Part shown: piece by piece, positions 6,670-35,397 of the stretch
How the letters are laid out: every line of letters begins with the position of its first letter
Position numbering within the stretch: position 1 is the first letter of the stretch
Assembly: GCA_964458285.1 (NCBI GenBank)
Contig: CAYWID010000004.1
Coordinates: 147,842-211,841 of the forward strand
Direction: 5' to 3'
DNA from: an uncultured Subdoligranulum sp.
GTDB lineage: Bacteria; Bacillota; Clostridia; Oscillospirales; Ruminococcaceae
Length of the DNA: 64,000 nt
The notes under the pieces: model-generated
Told to the model about the DNA's origin: nothing
The model's input: only the letters and a program-made list of their open reading frames with translations
The model's database searches: none
Program-made: the position numbers and the translations under genes

Positions 6670-6696
6670 CCGGTCAAGGGGCAAAAAAGGCGACAG

Positions 6697-6774
6697 GAAA
6701 GCCCCGCCGAGGGAGGGCGGGGCTTACAGAAAGGAGGAGGAGAAAACATGAAAAAGTGTAGTTTTGTTTGCTAC
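6697..6774 (-). ncRNA. putative anti-SD/anti-AUG small RNA, copy B
   Basis: TTGACG-17-TACAAT promoter; core CUUUUUCAUGUUUUCUCCUCCUCCUUUCUG; hairpin AAGCCCCGCC-CUCCCUC-GGCGGGGCUU; paralogue at 33124-33210. Confidence 0.75.
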
Positions 6775-6780
6775 GGTCTT

Positions 6781-6834
6781 ATTGTAACCGATTTGTTACG
6801 ATTCGTCAAGAGCAAATTGTTACGTTTTTGTAAC
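6781..6834 (-). promoter_or_regulatory. sRNA promoter with two 7-4-7 direct-repeat boxes (OmpR-family type)
   Basis: plus-strand TTGTAAC 6782, TTGTTAC 6793, TTGTTAC 6817, TTGTAAC 6828; -35 at 6804-6809, -10 at 6781-6786. Confidence 0.8.
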
Positions 6835-6971: not shown

Positions 6972-7002
6972 GAAACAATTCTGTGACAAGCCTCGTTATA
7001 AT
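6972..7002 (+). promoter_or_regulatory. putative TCS operon promoter with a degenerate repeat box in place of -35
   Basis: GAAACAA-ttct-GTGACAA (6972-6989) then TATAAT (6997-7002). Confidence 0.5.
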
Positions 7003-7086
7003 GAATAAGGAGAATTGCGGCCGGGGTCGCCTGGAAACGGCGCGGCGGCATTTTGGAAACGGAAAACATAGGCGGAGGCATGGCAG

Positions 7087-7740
7087 ATGGCAAATATCCT
7101 GATCGCGGAGGACGAGCGTGCAATCAACAATCTGATGGCGGCCAACCTGCGGCTGGTGGGGCACGCCTGCACGCAGGCTTTTACCGGCCCCCAGGCGCTG
7201 GAGCTGGCGCAAAGCGGCGCCTTTGACCTGGTGCTGCTGGATGTGATGCTGCCCGGGCAGGACGGCTTTGCGGTGAAAAGCCTGCTTCCCGCCGAGCAGC
7301 CGGTTATTTTTGTGACGGCCCGCACCGGCCTTGGCGACAAGCTCAAGGGCCTTGGCCTTGGCGCGGACGATTACATCGTCAAGCCGTTTGAAATACTGGA
7401 GCTGCTTGCCCGGGTGGAAACCGTGCTGCGCCGCACCCGCCGCAATGCCGAGACGTTCGCTTTTAAAGATCTTTTGGTCGATCTGACGGCCCGGCGGGTG
7501 GTGCGCGGCGGCGAGACGCTGGAGCTTACCCCGCAGGAATTTGCCCTGCTGGAGGCGCTGGTCATCAACCGAAACCTGGCGTTAAGCCGAGAAAAGCTGC
7601 TTTCCATCGCCTGGGGCTACGATTACGAGGGCGAAACCCGCACCGTGGACGTACACATCCAGCGCATTCGCAAAAAGCTTGGCCTTGAGCAGGAGATTCA
7701 AACCGTTTTCAAGGTTGGCTACCGGCTCAACACGCGGTAA
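7087..7740 (+). CDS. OmpR/PhoB family response regulator
   Basis: ILIAEDE, LLDVMLP, GADDYIVKPF, winged-helix RTVDVHIQRIRKKL. Confidence 0.95.
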   Translation: MANILIAEDERAINNLMAANLRLVGHACTQAFTGPQALELAQSGAFDLVLLDVMLPGQDGFAVKSLLPAEQPVIFVTARTGLGDKLKGLGLGADDYIVKPFEILELLARVETVLRRTRRNAETFAFKDLLVDLTARRVVRGGETLELTPQEFALLEALVINRNLALSREKLLSIAWGYDYEGETRTVDVHIQRIRKKLGLEQEIQTVFKVGYRLNTR

Positions 7741-22749: not shown

Positions 22750-23976
22750 ATGAAAAAGTTCGTCAGCGTTGTGCTGGCCGCCGCCATGGCGGCCAGCCTG
22801 GCAGCCTGCGGCGCCACCGCGGATGCCACGGCGTCCTCCGCCACCGCGGAGGGCAGCGCCTCCACCGCCGCGGAGGGCAGCGCCTCCGCTTCCGGCGCCG
22901 CCATCAAAATCGGCGGCATCGGCCCCTTGACCGGCGCGGCCGCCGTGTACGGCAACGCCGTCAAAAACGGCGAGGAGCTTGCCGTCAAGGAGATCAACGC
23001 CAAGGGCGGCACCCAGTTTGAGCTGAAGTTTGAGGACGACGAGCATGACGCCGAGAAGTCCGTCAATGCCTACAACAGCCTGAAGGACTGGGGCATGCAG
23101 ATTCTGGCGGGCCCCGTCACCACCACCCCGACCCTGGCCGTTGCGGCCGAGGCCGCCGTGGACAATATCTTTGAGCTGACCCCCTCCGCCTCCGCGCAGG
23201 CCGTCATCGAGACCGGCGACAACGTCTTCCAGGTCTGCTTCACAGACCCCAACCAGGGCATTGCCTCCGCCGATTACATCGCCGAGAACAAGCTGGCCAC
23301 CGCCGTGGGCGTCATCTACGATTCCTCGGACGCCTACTCCAGCGGCATCTATGAAAAGTTCAACGCCGAGGCCCAGAGCAAGGGCCTCAAGGTTGTGGCC
23401 GCCGAGGCTTTCACCGGCGACAACAAGAGCGACCTTTCCACCCAGGTTACCAAGTGCAAGGATGCGGGCGCCGATCTGATCTTCCTGCCCATCTATTACA
23501 CCGAGGCCTCCCAGATCCTCAAGTACGCCAGCAGCATCGGCTACGCGCCCAAGTTCTTCGGCTGCGACGGCCTGGACGGCCTGCTGGACGTCGAGGGCTT
23601 TGACAAAAACCTTGCCGAGGGCGTCATGCTTCTGACCCCGTTCGCCGCCGATGCCACCGATGCAAAGACCCAGGCCTTTGTCACCGCGTATAAGGCCGCC
23701 TACGGCGAGACCCCGAACCAGTTTGCCGCCGATGCCTACGACGTCGTGTACTCGATCGCGCAGGCCTGCGACGCCGCCCAGGTCACGCCCGACATGAAGG
23801 CCGCCGATATCTGCGAGGCCCTCAAGGCCCAGTTCACCACCATGAAGTTCGACGGTCTGACCGGCACCGGCATGACCTGGGACGCCACCGGCGCCGTGTC
23901 CAAGTCTCCCCGCGCCGTCGTGATCGAGAACGGCTCCTACAAGGCGATGGCCGCCACCGCCGAATCCGCCAAGTAA
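22750..23976 (+). CDS. livK: branched-chain amino acid ABC transporter substrate-binding lipoprotein
   Basis: LAAC lipobox; IGGIGPLTG, EDDE periplasmic-binding type I; followed by livHMGF. Confidence 0.92.
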   Translation: MKKFVSVVLAAAMAASLAACGATADATASSATAEGSASTAAEGSASASGAAIKIGGIGPLTGAAAVYGNAVKNGEELAVKEINAKGGTQFELKFEDDEHDAEKSVNAYNSLKDWGMQILAGPVTTTPTLAVAAEAAVDNIFELTPSASAQAVIETGDNVFQVCFTDPNQGIASADYIAENKLATAVGVIYDSSDAYSSGIYEKFNAEAQSKGLKVVAAEAFTGDNKSDLSTQVTKCKDAGADLIFLPIYYTEASQILKYASSIGYAPKFFGCDGLDGLLDVEGFDKNLAEGVMLLTPFAADATDAKTQAFVTAYKAAYGETPNQFAADAYDVVYSIAQACDAAQVTPDMKAADICEALKAQFTTMKFDGLTGTGMTWDATGAVSKSPRAVVIENGSYKAMAATAESAK

Positions 23977-32274: not shown

Positions 32275-33060
32275 ATGCTGCAACCCTATGAATTTGCCGA
32301 GGATTTTACCGTTTACGGGTACGACGGGGACTACCGGGGCCTTGCCAGGCCGGGGGCGCTGCTGCGCTACGCGCAGGAGGTGGCCGGGCAGCAGTGTACC
32401 CATTACGGCATCACCGGGGAGGTGTACGCCCGCACCCACACGGCCTATGTGCTGGCCAAAACGGCCATGCGCTTTGTCCGCGTGCCCCGCGTAGGCGAGC
32501 GCCTGACCCTGATCACCCAGCCGGAGGCCCTCAAGCGGGCCGTCAACAAGCGCCTGACCGTGGTGCGGGACGCCGCGGGGGAGGAGATTGCCCTGCTGGA
32601 CAGCCGCTGGGTGCTGATCGATACCGAAAAGCGGGTCATCCTGCGCCGCCACCCGCCCGAGGTCTGCGGCCCCTGGGCCGAGGAGCTGGGCCGCAGCCTG
32701 CCCATGAAGATGGCTTCCCGGCCCGGGGACGCCGCCCCCGTGGGGGAGCGCCGGGCCGTTTACTCCCTCTGCGATGCCAACGGCCACCTCAACAACACCC
32801 GCTATGTGGATCTGGTGCTGGACGCCCTGCCCCCGCAGGCGCTGGACGGCGCGGCGGTGGAAACCCTGCTGATCTTTTACCACAAGGAGGTGCCGCGCGG
32901 GGAAGCGTTTATGCTGTACCGGGCCCAAACGGCCCCCGGCCGCTGGTATTTTTGCGGCGTGCGGGAGGATAAATGCTGCTTTGAGGCCGAGCTTTCCCTC
33001 CGCGCGCTGCCCTGGCGGGACGGCGCCGCGGCGGGCGAAGCGCCGCAGGGCGGCGGCTGA
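32275..33060 (+). CDS. acyl-ACP thioesterase (FatA/FatB-like double hot-dog)
   Basis: LRYAQEVA, CDANGHLNNTRY motif. Confidence 0.88.
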   Translation: MLQPYEFAEDFTVYGYDGDYRGLARPGALLRYAQEVAGQQCTHYGITGEVYARTHTAYVLAKTAMRFVRVPRVGERLTLITQPEALKRAVNKRLTVVRDAAGEEIALLDSRWVLIDTEKRVILRRHPPEVCGPWAEELGRSLPMKMASRPGDAAPVGERRAVYSLCDANGHLNNTRYVDLVLDALPPQALDGAAVETLLIFYHKEVPRGEAFMLYRAQTAPGRWYFCGVREDKCCFEAELSLRALPWRDGAAAGEAPQGGG

Positions 33061-33063
33061 AAC

Positions 33064-33117
33064 GTTACAATTTGTTTACAAAAAGGCCTTGACAACTGAT
33101 GACAAAATTGTTACAAT
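33064..33117 (+). promoter_or_regulatory. sRNA promoter with two 7-4-7 direct-repeat boxes
   Basis: GTTACAA 33064, TTTACAA 33075, TTGACA 33089-33094, ATGACAA 33099, GTTACAA 33110, TACAAT 33112-33117. Confidence 0.82.
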
Positions 33118-33123
33118 AAGCTT

Positions 33124-33210
33124 GCAAGTTCAACCAATTCCTTCTTTTTCATGTGTTTTTTTCTCCTTCTCCTCTGCGCCCCCGCCAATCCCTCCGGCGG
33201 GGGCCTTTTT
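33124..33210 (+). ncRNA. putative anti-SD/anti-AUG small RNA, copy A
   Basis: own promoter; core CUUUUUCAUGUGUUUUUUUCUCCUUCUCCUCU; terminator GCCCCCGCC-AAUCCCUCC-GGCGGGGGC-CUUUUU; no sense ORF with an RBS. Confidence 0.8.
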
Positions 33211-33211
33211 A

Positions 33212-33240
33212 TTGACAGGGCGGCAGGTTTTTGCTATACT
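33212..33240 (+). promoter_or_regulatory. sigma-A promoter of the opp operon
   Basis: TTGACA-17-TATACT with TG extension. Confidence 0.88.
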
Positions 33241-33408
33241 GTATCAAACCACTCTTTACGGCGCGCAATAGAATTTGGAAAAAAGGGGCAAACAAATGAC
33301 TCACAAGGAAGTGGGCGTTGTTTGCTTTTTGTCTTTTTTGGGCGCCGCCCAAAGAGCGGGGGAGCGCCGGGCAGAACGCTGCGCGGCGGAAGAAAGGATG
33401 GAAACGTG

Positions 33409-35397
33409 ATGAAGAAAAGCGGTCAACTTTTGGCCGGCCTGCTGGCTGGCGCTTTTTGCTTTTCCCTGGCGGGCTGCGGCTCCGCCGGCGGCAGCGGCGC
33501 AACCGGGGAGGCGGCCTCCGGCGGCGCCGCGGCCCCCAGCGTCTACCGCACCCTGTATTCCAGCGAGGTAACCACCCTGAATTACCTCACCACCAGCAGC
33601 ACAAACGAGTACGCCATCGGCGCCAACGTCGTGGATTCCCTGGTCGAGTACGACAGCTACGGCAGGATCATCCCCTCCCTGGCCGAGAGCTGGAGCCACA
33701 ACGACGATATGACCGAGTGGACCTTCCACATCCGCAAGGGCGCCAAGTGGGTGGATCAGACCGGCAAGGAGGTGGCCGATGTCACCGCCAACGACTGGGT
33801 CTCCGCGGCGCGCTACGTCAACGACGCCCACAACGATTCCGCCAACCAGTATATGTACAACACGGGCGCGGTCGTCCACAACGCGCAGGCCTACTATGAC
33901 TACACGGCCTACCAGCTCACGCTGGAAACGAACAACCTTGCCACCGGCGAGAACGCGGCGGATTCGGACGGCAACCCCATCACGGTCGTGGACCCCGTGG
34001 ATCCCGCCAGCATCGGCGTGCGGGCCGCCGACGATTCCACGCTGGTCTACACGCTGGATCAGCCCTGCCCGTTCTTTCTCACAGTGCTGTCCTACACCTC
34101 CTATATGCCGGTGTACGGCCCGTTTTTGGAGGAGAAGGGCAGCCAGTTCGGCCTGGACAACGAGAGCCTGCTCTACAACGGCGCCTACATCCTCTCGACG
34201 TTTGAGCCGCAGGACAGTCATATCCTGACCAAAAACCCCGCCTACTGGGACAAGGACAACGTCTTTATCGATAAAATCCAGGAAAAGTACAACCCCGAGG
34301 CCACCAGCGTGGAGGCCACCATGTACAAGAACGGCGAGGTCGATCTGGCCCACATCAGCGCCGATCTGCTGGATTCCTGGCTGAAGGACGACGCCACCAA
34401 AAACCTTGTCCACGGTTCCCGGCCGGACAATGCGTTCAGCTATTTCTACTGCTTCAACTTTGACCCCGAGTTCGACGCCCAGTACGAGCCGGAAAACTGG
34501 AAAAAGGCCGTCAACAACGAGGATTTCCGCCTTTCGATCCTTCACGCGCTCGACCGCGTCAAGGCCAAGACGGTCAGCGAGCCGTACGACCCCAAGAGCC
34601 TGCTCTGCAACACGGTCACCCCGGCCAACTTTGCCGTGGGCGCCGGGGTGGATTACACCCAGTACCCGGCGCTGCAGGCGTTTACAAACGGCGACAGCTT
34701 TGACGCCGCCGCGGCCGCGGCCAGCCGGGACAAGGCCCGCACGGCGCTTGCCGCCGAGGGCGTTACCTTCCCCGTCAAGGTGCTGATGCCCTACAACCCC
34801 ACCTCCCCCAACTGGGACAAGGAATGCCAGGTGGTGGAGCAGCAGCTTGAGGGCGCCCTCGGCGCCGATTACATCGATGTCATCGTGCAGGCCGGCCCCG
34901 AGACGGGCTTCCTGTCCTCGGTGCGGCGCAGCGGCAACTACGCGCTGCTCAAGTGCAACTACGGCGCCGATTACGCCGACCCCATGACCTACACCGATCC
35001 CTTCACCAAGGGCAGCAACTACAATTTCTGGGATACCAGCACCGACCCCGCCACTGCGGCCCTGTTTGCCGAATGGGAGGCCAAGGTCAAGGCGGCCTCC
35101 GCCATCTATAACGACGACGGCGCCCGCTACAAGGCTTTTGCCGAGGCCGAGGCCATCCTGATCGACCACGCCATCGTAATCCCCTACAGCATTTCCTCGG
35201 GCGAGGGGTACGTCGCCAGCAACCTCAACCAGCTGGAGGGCGAGTACGCCCCCTACGGCGTGGCGCGGGAGCGGTACAAGTACGAGCATCTTTACCCCAC
35301 CTCGATGAGCATGGAAGAATTCCGGAAGGCCTACGACGCCTGGGTGGCCGAGCGCACCCGGGCGGTGGCCGCCGCCACAACGGAATCCGCGTCCTGA
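33409..35397 (+). CDS. oppA: oligopeptide ABC substrate-binding lipoprotein
   Basis: LAGC lipobox; TTLNY, DSLVEYD, WTFHIRKGAKW (SBP family 5). Confidence 0.93.
   Translation: MKKSGQLLAGLLAGAFCFSLAGCGSAGGSGATGEAASGGAAAPSVYRTLYSSEVTTLNYLTTSSTNEYAIGANVVDSLVEYDSYGRIIPSLAESWSHNDDMTEWTFHIRKGAKWVDQTGKEVADVTANDWVSAARYVNDAHNDSANQYMYNTGAVVHNAQAYYDYTAYQLTLETNNLATGENAADSDGNPITVVDPVDPASIGVRAADDSTLVYTLDQPCPFFLTVLSYTSYMPVYGPFLEEKGSQFGLDNESLLYNGAYILSTFEPQDSHILTKNPAYWDKDNVFIDKIQEKYNPEATSVEATMYKNGEVDLAHISADLLDSWLKDDATKNLVHGSRPDNAFSYFYCFNFDPEFDAQYEPENWKKAVNNEDFRLSILHALDRVKAKTVSEPYDPKSLLCNTVTPANFAVGAGVDYTQYPALQAFTNGDSFDAAAAAASRDKARTALAAEGVTFPVKVLMPYNPTSPNWDKECQVVEQQLEGALGADYIDVIVQAGPETGFLSSVRRSGNYALLKCNYGADYADPMTYTDPFTKGSNYNFWDTSTDPATAALFAEWEAKVKAASAIYNDDGARYKAFAEAEAILIDHAIVIPYSISSGEGYVASNLNQLEGEYAPYGVARERYKYEHLYPTSMSMEEFRKAYDAWVAERTRAVAAATTESAS

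Follow-up and report, generated by a model that had tools for sequence, protein, structure and literature searches.

Candidate small RNA genes complementary to translation-initiation regions in Gemmiger and related gut bacteria

In the guts of humans and chickens, Gemmiger, Subdoligranulum and related bacteria rank among the most abundant. We analysed a 64,000-nucleotide (nt) stretch of contig CAYWID010000004.1 of an uncultured Subdoligranulum sp. (assembly GCA_964458285.1), referred to here as the window and numbered from its first letter, in which a first-pass annotation made from the letters alone had proposed a stand-alone small RNA (sRNA) gene mirroring a whole translation-initiation region. 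The window carries two such predicted genes, copy A on the plus strand between an acyl-acyl carrier protein (ACP) thioesterase gene and an oppA-like lipoprotein gene, and its diverged paralogue, copy B, on the minus strand (Table 1); they are the only copies in the 2.35-Mb genome. The promoter of copy A, its probable +1 G and its intrinsic terminator all lie where the first-pass annotation had put them and are followed, as it had said, by a second, separate promoter for oppA. Promoter sites matching the consensus at 11 of 12 positions number two in the 2.5-kb region against 0.6 expected from shuffles. From the geometry of promoter and terminator we infer a transcript whose first nucleotide would lie within TTGCAAG, 7 nt past the -10 box; this heptamer is either a further unit of the 11-base-pair (bp) repeat array described below or a 5′ RNA motif.

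The copy A RNA has a minimum free energy of -21.9 kcal/mol (z = -3.75) and is predicted to fold into the terminator hairpin alone, with all 54 nt 5′ of the hairpin unpaired. Within this unpaired part CUUUUUCAU is followed after 10 nt by CUCCUUCUCCUCU (33163-33175), and the terminator loop is again complementary to the Shine-Dalgarno (SD) sequence, which confirms the reported succession of anti-start segment, anti-SD segment and anti-SD loop. Copy B, which has a Crp/Fnr-like gene on one side and, in divergent orientation on the other, the genes of an OmpR/PhoB-type regulator and a histidine kinase, was missed by a BLAST search of copy A against its own genome and recovered by a motif search. 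The covariance model scores copy A at 81.4 bits (E = 3e-16) and copy B at 66.3 bits.

Table 1 Features of the two predicted sRNA genes and their surroundings, in window coordinates
Feature	Position	Strand	Details
Copy B sRNA gene	~6687..6809	-	Diverged paralogue; predicted RNA ~6774-6687
Copy B promoter	6809-6781	-	TTGACG 6809-6804, 17-nt spacer, TACAAT 6786-6781; +1 ~6774
Copy B anti-start module CUUUUUCAU	6756-6748	-	
Copy B pyrimidine tract UUUUCUCCUCCUCCUUUCU	6746-6728	-	
Copy B hairpin GCCCCGCC/CUCCCUC/GGCGGGGC	6723-6701	-	Weak U tail
OmpR/PhoB-type regulator gene	7087-7740		Divergent from copy B
Acyl-ACP thioesterase gene	32275..33060	+	Conserved upstream neighbour; Pfam PF01643 and PF20791; stop codon 33058-33060
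Upstream direct repeat GTTACAA-N4-TTTACAA	33064..33081	+	11-bp period, ends 7 bp before -35; candidate response-regulator site
Copy A promoter TTGACA-17-TGtTACAAT	33089..33117	+	Sigma-70 type, 11/12 consensus, TG present
Copy A -35 and -10 boxes	33089-33094; 33112-33117	+	TTGACA; 17-nt spacer with TG; TACAAT
Second repeat pair ATGACAA-N4-GTTACAA	33099-33116	+	Over spacer and -10
TTGCAAG	33122..33128	+	At inferred transcription start (+1 G at 33124); nearly invariant among relatives
Predicted sRNA copy A	33124..33210	+	~87 nt, from promoter and terminator geometry
Anti-start module CUUUUUCAU	33144..33152	+	Complementary to AUG-AAA-AAG
Pyrimidine tract UUUUUUUCUCCUUCUCCUCU	33156..33175	+	Anti-SD module
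Intrinsic terminator	33178..33210	+	9-bp G+C stem, loop, U tract
Terminator stem 5′ arm GCCCCCGCC	33178-33186	+	
Terminator loop AAUCCCUCC	33187-33195	+	Second anti-SD, UCCC-type motif
Terminator stem 3′ arm GGCGGGGGC	33196-33204	+	Then CUUUUUAUU
Separate oppA promoter TTGACA-17-TATACT	33212..33240	+	11/12 match; outside the sRNA

Relatives of the element were found by BLAST, with a covariance model and with the core sequence of the genus; the cores of the genome studied here are atypical, and a strict pattern of the core gave no match in relatives. The Gemmiger sample, delimited according to GTDB, takes in genomes named Gemmiger formicilis or Subdoligranulum variabile in their records. By BLAST and covariance model the element is present in all 25 good Gemmiger genomes (at least 90 % complete), with one copy per sampled genome; ours is the sole genome with two, barring two partial matches in one draft (G064). 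Judged by this recurrence, the architecture of the whole copy A gene and of copy B is beyond chance. Representatives of 42 species agree in every letter of a 27-nt core, UUUUUCAUGUGUUCUUCUCCUCCUUUC, and the anti-SD tract of the other Gemmiger species reads UUCUUCUCCUCCUUUC; the part of the RNA from its start to the core varies in sequence and ranges in length from ~20 to ~60 nt. UUUUUCAU is kept in every family member, including the long forms of other genera described below. The acyl-ACP thioesterase gene always lies just upstream, and the downstream gene differs in most relatives. In the terminator stem 6 of 8 pairs have changed in a compensatory manner (for example CCCCCGCC/GGCGGGGG, CCTCGCCC/GGGCGAGG, CTCCGCCC/GGGCGGAG and CCGCTGCC/GGTGGCGG), a score reached in none of 500 shuffles and in no slid register, while the loop UCCCUC is constant across the genus. 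As read from these comparisons, stem covariation together with a fixed loop is a signature of selection on the plus-strand RNA.

Some Gemmiger species (L020, L025-L028, L031, L033 and others) carry an extra 5′ hairpin, GCAAC-ACCCCAAG-GUUGC, with a CCCC loop and a further CCCC after it; these C-rich motifs are of the RsaE/RoxS kind. Exact core matches were also present in bins labelled Acutalibacteraceae, Bulleidia and Coriobacteriaceae (L042, L053, L067), whose contigs are probably mis-binned Gemmiger DNA, since their flanks show thioesterase synteny of the Gemmiger type.

Outside the genus we searched 401 genomes of the same GTDB family with a compound pattern consisting of the -10 box, TTGCAAG at the start and UUUUUCAT within 35 nt. 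Matches came from 35 of these genomes, representing 13 of 166 genera, with never more than one in a genome, and reversed-pattern controls gave none; by this measure the sRNA family is one that reaches at least 12 genera beyond Gemmiger. The predicted RNAs outside Gemmiger are longer (~165-175 nt), with the promoter and three modules as in Gemmiger and a 5′ end, UUGCAAGAAAGUUACA...CUUUUUCAUGUG, common to both forms. Their central domain is closed by an extra helix and encloses UCUCCUCCU (L136-L159, L179-L192), and their terminator loop is usually GUCCCUCC, with UCCCUC kept in most. In the central helix and terminator 13 pairs are changed on both sides, and none of 500 shuffles reached the observed score. 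Thioesterase synteny also persists in these genera, and the conservation of core and terminator loop, which the first-pass annotation had named as a point to check, holds within Gemmiger and outside it. About 25-35 nt, including part of the structured domain, separate the anti-start module of the long forms from their anti-SD module. The description of the RNA as the mirror of a whole initiation region therefore fits Gemmiger and does not carry over to the other genera; comparison of the two forms shows the contiguous mirror to be a derived, shortened Gemmiger state. Most weak covariance-model matches outside the genus are antisense to real lipoprotein gene starts (MKK..LLAL..ACG) and were rejected as homologues. 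Rfam 15 gave no family for either the short or the long form, whether the gathering threshold or permissive E-values were applied, in agreement with the earlier statement that the RNA was not a recognised family, and we found no published sRNA work on Gemmiger or Faecalibacterium.

Three conserved unpaired pyrimidine modules are common to the family, namely UUUUUCAU, CUCCUCC(UUUC) and UCCCUC in the terminator loop. CCUCCUUUC(U), a stretch of the core in its genus form, is also present at the 3′ end of 16S ribosomal RNA (rRNA) in Gemmiger, ...GGAUCACCUCCUUUCUA, as read in complete Gemmiger genomes, the draft assembly of our genome being without the 16S 3′ end. As the CUCCUCC module is the sequence of the 16S tail, it should bind the sequences that the ribosome binds. 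In this genome 60 predicted genes begin with ATGAAAAA, 23 of which encode a lipobox or lipoprotein signal peptide (odds ratio 12, p = 1.7e-14), the remainder encoding mostly other signal peptides or membrane anchors. All eight of those sampled are substrate-binding proteins of ATP-binding cassette (ABC) transporters, belonging to several Pfam families. The median duplex energy predicted for ATGAAAAA initiation regions is -23 kcal/mol, compared with -17 kcal/mol for the rest. The weak covariance-model matches in other genera, noted above, are antisense to gene starts of this same kind. Scored with a lipoprotein-start matrix, the reverse complements of the copy A and copy B cores fall within the top 5 % of initiation regions and that of the genus core just below, so that the sRNA resembles the complement of a consensus start for lipoprotein genes of binding proteins. 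Among individual candidates, the initiation region of the adjacent oppA-like gene gives a duplex of -27.4 kcal/mol (top 3.4 %), and a livK-like gene at 22750 (top 6 %) gives a gap-free 24-nt duplex with one mismatch and five G-U pairs.

The sRNA promoter is conserved across Gemmiger and in other genera, and with it an array of TTACAA-like units at 11-bp spacing that extends from ~-75 to +20 and comprises the upstream pair, the -35 box, the pair over spacer and -10, and TTGCAAG at the start. The upstream pair recurs at the same position and in the same form (.TTACAA-N4/5-TTWACAA) in 45 distinct promoters; an additional upstream unit is frequent, and the long forms add GTTACA at ~+12. In this genome only the two sRNA genes have a promoter of this type. 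Promoter pattern searches relied on exact or compound patterns only, as the pattern with 2 mismatches matched ordinary sigma-70 promoters. Phased arrays of 11-bp repeats are typical of OmpR/PhoB-type regulators, and a response regulator of this type probably binds the repeats described here. Control of the sRNA by a two-component system is a reasonable lead, one that we hold tentatively and at somewhat less than even chances.

The regulator and kinase next to copy B belong to the OmpR/PhoB family and reach no NCBIfam equivalog cut-off. Against cut-offs of 340 bits (YycF) and 725 bits (WalK), the regulator reaches 153 and the kinase 151; by these models the pair is not a WalRK orthologue, nor is the regulator a PhoB orthologue. 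Read on the opposite strand, the sRNA boxes fit TGTWAH-N5-TGTWAH, which we take to be the WalR consensus. In five Gemmiger species (L047, L050, L053, L056, L060) genes for a different OmpR-type regulator and a kinase, in the same orientation, separate the thioesterase gene from the sRNA; no two-component system adjoining the sRNA was found in other genera. The promoter of the copy-B-adjacent regulator gene itself (window 6972-7004) has GAAACAA-N4-GTGACAA in the place of the -35, 8 bp before a TTATAAT -10. Its orthologues in other Gemmiger (L195-L202) have TGTAAC-N5-GGATAC-N7/8-TTATAAT, with the box likewise 8 bp upstream of the -10, which looks like positive autoregulation through a similar half-site. 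A handful of other intergenic repeats of the TTACAA-N4/5-TTWACAA type are present outside the window in this G+C-rich genome (C2:57263, C3:70725, C4:39559, C5:30780, C6:49931 and C9:95388) and may mark further members of the same regulon.

Upstream of copy A, the first promoter box begins 4 nt past the thioesterase stop codon, and a search of 33060-33177 gave no terminator-like site. The sRNA terminator probably also serves to end the thioesterase transcripts, a sharing that is deduced because no other terminator precedes 33178. Of the proposal that the sRNA gene stands alone, the promoter of its own is borne out and full independence is not, the terminator probably being shared with the thioesterase gene. 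Downstream, the oppA promoter begins 2 nt past the U tract of the sRNA, and the true start of the oppA-like lipoprotein gene is at 33409, opening AUGAAGAAA. A 748-codon open reading frame (ORF) at 33151-35397 on the plus strand was rejected as the gene start; it is an accidental in-frame upstream extension of oppA, and it crosses the sRNA, its terminator and the oppA promoter. Within the oppA leader of ~170 nt lies a short ORF (window 33275-33409, plus strand) of 37 codons from ATG 33297, or 44 codons counted from TTG 33275, and its last codon and the first of oppA overlap (GTGATG); this may be a leader ORF with translational coupling, or else a chance occurrence in G+C-rich DNA.

We propose that a strong sigma-70-type promoter, with its phased repeats occupied by the putative response regulator, would drive synthesis of an sRNA that ends at the intrinsic terminator. 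Its three pyrimidine modules would pair imperfectly in trans with the initiation regions of many mRNAs and block access of the 30S subunit. Preferred targets would have a purine-rich SD followed by AUGAAAAAR and in this genome would mainly encode substrate-binding lipoproteins of ABC transporters, with the neighbouring oppA-like gene and the livK-like gene among the predicted partners. The parts of this proposal differ in strength. That copy A is a genuine sRNA gene of a new family is very probable from its architecture and conservation; that the RNA acts as a trans-acting repressor, the reading of the first-pass annotation, by pairing with initiation regions is supported within the reach of sequence analysis and favoured with moderate confidence; and that binding-protein lipoprotein mRNAs are its main targets is plausible, at a little under an even chance.

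Several observations weigh against this reading. The enrichment of binding proteins is nearly automatic for an anti-AUGAAAAA sequence and is a prediction, no test. A genome-wide RNAduplex scan was dominated by G-rich sites pairing with the terminator arm, and when the scan was limited to the core and initiation regions generic strong SD sites still mostly ranked first, for which reason we claim no specific targets; duplex energies are governed by generic SD pairing, and the oppA and livK candidates are good, not outstanding. In none of the genomes searched did a site match the 24-nt anti-core with 3 mismatches or fewer, so that no single strong target accounts for the 27-nt invariance and pairing must be imperfect and spread over many targets, which in turn may be the reason for the 27 frozen nt. 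The genus-invariant core is absent from both copies of this genome. A possible 5′ hairpin of the long forms (GCAAGAAAG:CUUUUUCAUGU), which never varies and so is neither supported nor refuted by covariation, could mask the anti-start module. A crude tblastn search found no Hfq. With regard to regulation, clear orthologues of the copy-B-adjacent regulator (at least 63 % identity) occur in some Gemmiger species only, and the regulators encoded beside the sRNA in the five species named above are 36-38 % identical to their best matches here and are not orthologues of any regulator in this genome. These points, and the absence of a two-component system beside the sRNA in other genera, count against the copy-B-adjacent regulator as the universal controller.

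The length of the invariant core also invites a different explanation, in which the RNA is a protein-directed decoy or sponge whose core mimics the 16S 3′ tail and titrates away a factor by which the tail is bound or cleaved, or else binds S1, the 30S subunit or another pyrimidine-tract protein. Twenty-seven invariant nt in 42 species far exceed what a typical sRNA seed needs, the genomes hold no near-perfect RNA partner, and the core contains the exact tail sequence. However, the anti-start module is as conserved as the tail mimic and would have no role in a 16S-tail decoy, and the core has diverged in the copies of this genome and in other genera, yet complementarity to initiation regions is kept. 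Constraint from many targets can likewise freeze a long seed, and no candidate protein is known; we regard a decoy as improbable. Less probable again is a role in cis, either as the thioesterase 3′ untranslated region and terminator or as a promoter-proximal transcript that modulates neighbours such as oppA by promoter occlusion or transcriptional interference. The uninterrupted run from the thioesterase stop (33060) into the element, the synteny with this gene across genera and the oppA promoter only 2 nt after the U tract are all compatible with such a role, but the element owns an 11/12-consensus promoter that is conserved everywhere, the downstream gene is not conserved and copy B lies in an unrelated context, between the Crp/Fnr-like gene and the two-component system. 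A bare terminator, moreover, needs neither an invariant unpaired 27-mer nor a conserved loop.

Two further explanations we consider very unlikely. Were the conserved feature mainly DNA, that is regulator-binding repeats and a promoter, with the short RNA a functionless by-product, the phased TTACAA-like units from ~-75 to +20 would be accounted for, TTGCAAG at +1 fitting the array; the most conserved stretch, the 27-mer, is nevertheless in the transcribed part downstream of the repeats, and covariation in the terminator and the central helix acts at the level of RNA. Alternatively the minus strand, to which the first-pass annotation had drawn attention as encoding a possible 13-amino-acid product, would be translated into a tiny peptide (MKKKELVELASLL) from the strong SD that the plus strand mirrors. 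The minus strand of copy A does present a canonical GGAG...AUG AAA AAG and a 13-codon ORF, and ORFs of 12-13 codons ending LLAS/KL recur in several relatives; these endings are found because the conserved TTGCAAG and -10 DNA dictate the residues. The length of the ORF is not conserved, ranging from 5 to >26 codons across relatives with only MKK otherwise in common, and in copy B the equivalent frame runs on without a comparable stop. The long forms place GGAGGAG ~30 nt from the minus-strand ATG, which leaves it without a usable SD, and the micro-ORF reading therefore falls for the family. Nor does the minus strand have a conserved promoter, whereas promoter and terminator of the plus strand are conserved. 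On the plus strand of copy A the AUG within CAUGUG has no SD sequence, and the element has no coding potential.

The trans-acting sRNA proposed here can be put in a more specific form, in which a copy of the 16S tail joined to the complement of AUG-AAA-AAR reads mRNAs for signal peptides, recognised by a strong SD and Met-Lys-Lys, so that one RNA throttles the lipoprotein binding proteins upon an envelope-sensing two-component signal. We offer this form as speculation that is rather unlikely to hold in full. If it were true, the 27-nt invariance would reflect the demands of dozens of targets at once, and the RNA would be a Gram-positive counterpart of GcvB, MicL and RybB in gut anaerobes, addressed through signal-peptide codons. 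The element would be a family-wide, readily recognised regulator that probably governs investment in nutrient-uptake proteins. Its promoter signature could reveal the signalling system above the sRNA, and the three unpaired modules with their natural short and long variants suit experiment.

Among known systems the csRNAs (cia-dependent small RNAs) of Streptococcus offer a close likeness. They are intergenic, end at a terminator and carry anti-SD and CAU sequences in an unpaired region between two stem-loops, and CiaR binds an 11-bp direct repeat at their promoters, NTTAAG-N5-TTTAAG, which lies 10 bp upstream of the -10 and replaces the -35 (Marx et al. 2010, PMC3091779). The csRNAs and the present element are both intergenic RNAs of ~50-200 nt with an intrinsic terminator and a repeat of 11-bp period at the promoter, both have unpaired anti-SD and CAU (anti-AUG) sequences, CUUUUUCAU and CUCCUUCUCCUCU being conserved in relatives of the element, and for both a block of translation initiation on several mRNAs has been proposed. 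In contrast to the csRNAs, the repeat here, TTACAA-N5-TTWACAA, lies upstream of an intact -35, with a second pair over the -10 and no TTTAAG repeat. The copies in the window are without a 5′ stem-loop, copy A consisting of the terminator hairpin only, whereas extra hairpins occur elsewhere, in some Gemmiger and in the long forms. The anti-start module here spans two Lys codons, and the gene is mostly single-copy and found in Oscillospirales, not streptococci. No csRNA family was among the Rfam 15 matches up to E = 10 on 32950-33450, nor among those at the gathering threshold in the whole window. The comparison with csRNAs drawn in the first-pass annotation thus stands for the mode of action and not for membership.

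The LhrC1-5 sRNAs of Listeria monocytogenes have CU-rich sites that are redundant with one another, one of them in the terminator loop, and are induced by envelope stress through LisRK (Sievers et al. 2014, PMC4132741). The element resembles LhrC and the UCCC-motif sRNAs RsaE/RoxS, RNAIII, SprD and FsrA in its CU-rich, SD-binding motifs, both single-stranded and in the terminator loop, and, unlike LhrC, also has a module against the start codon and a long tract with the sequence of the 16S tail. LhrC also targets oppA. Rfam searches matched the element to none of LhrC, RsaE/RoxS and related families. GcvB of enterobacteria, which is Hfq-dependent, is likewise a single sRNA restraining many periplasmic or lipoprotein substrate-binding proteins of ABC transporters, Opp and Liv among them, through a G/U-rich seed that acts on C/A-rich sites upstream of the SD; it is a functional analogue only, the pyrimidine seed here being predicted to pair with the SD and start codon. 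MicL represses a lipoprotein mRNA under envelope stress (PMC4102768). Like sRNAs of the DapZ/MicL type that derive from 3′ ends, the element combines a promoter of its own, placed where an upstream gene ends, with a terminator that it by inference shares with that gene, but here the promoter is just past the stop codon and not within the coding sequence. In concept the element belongs to a familiar class, that of CU-rich anti-SD sRNAs under two-component control, in which it is a new family.

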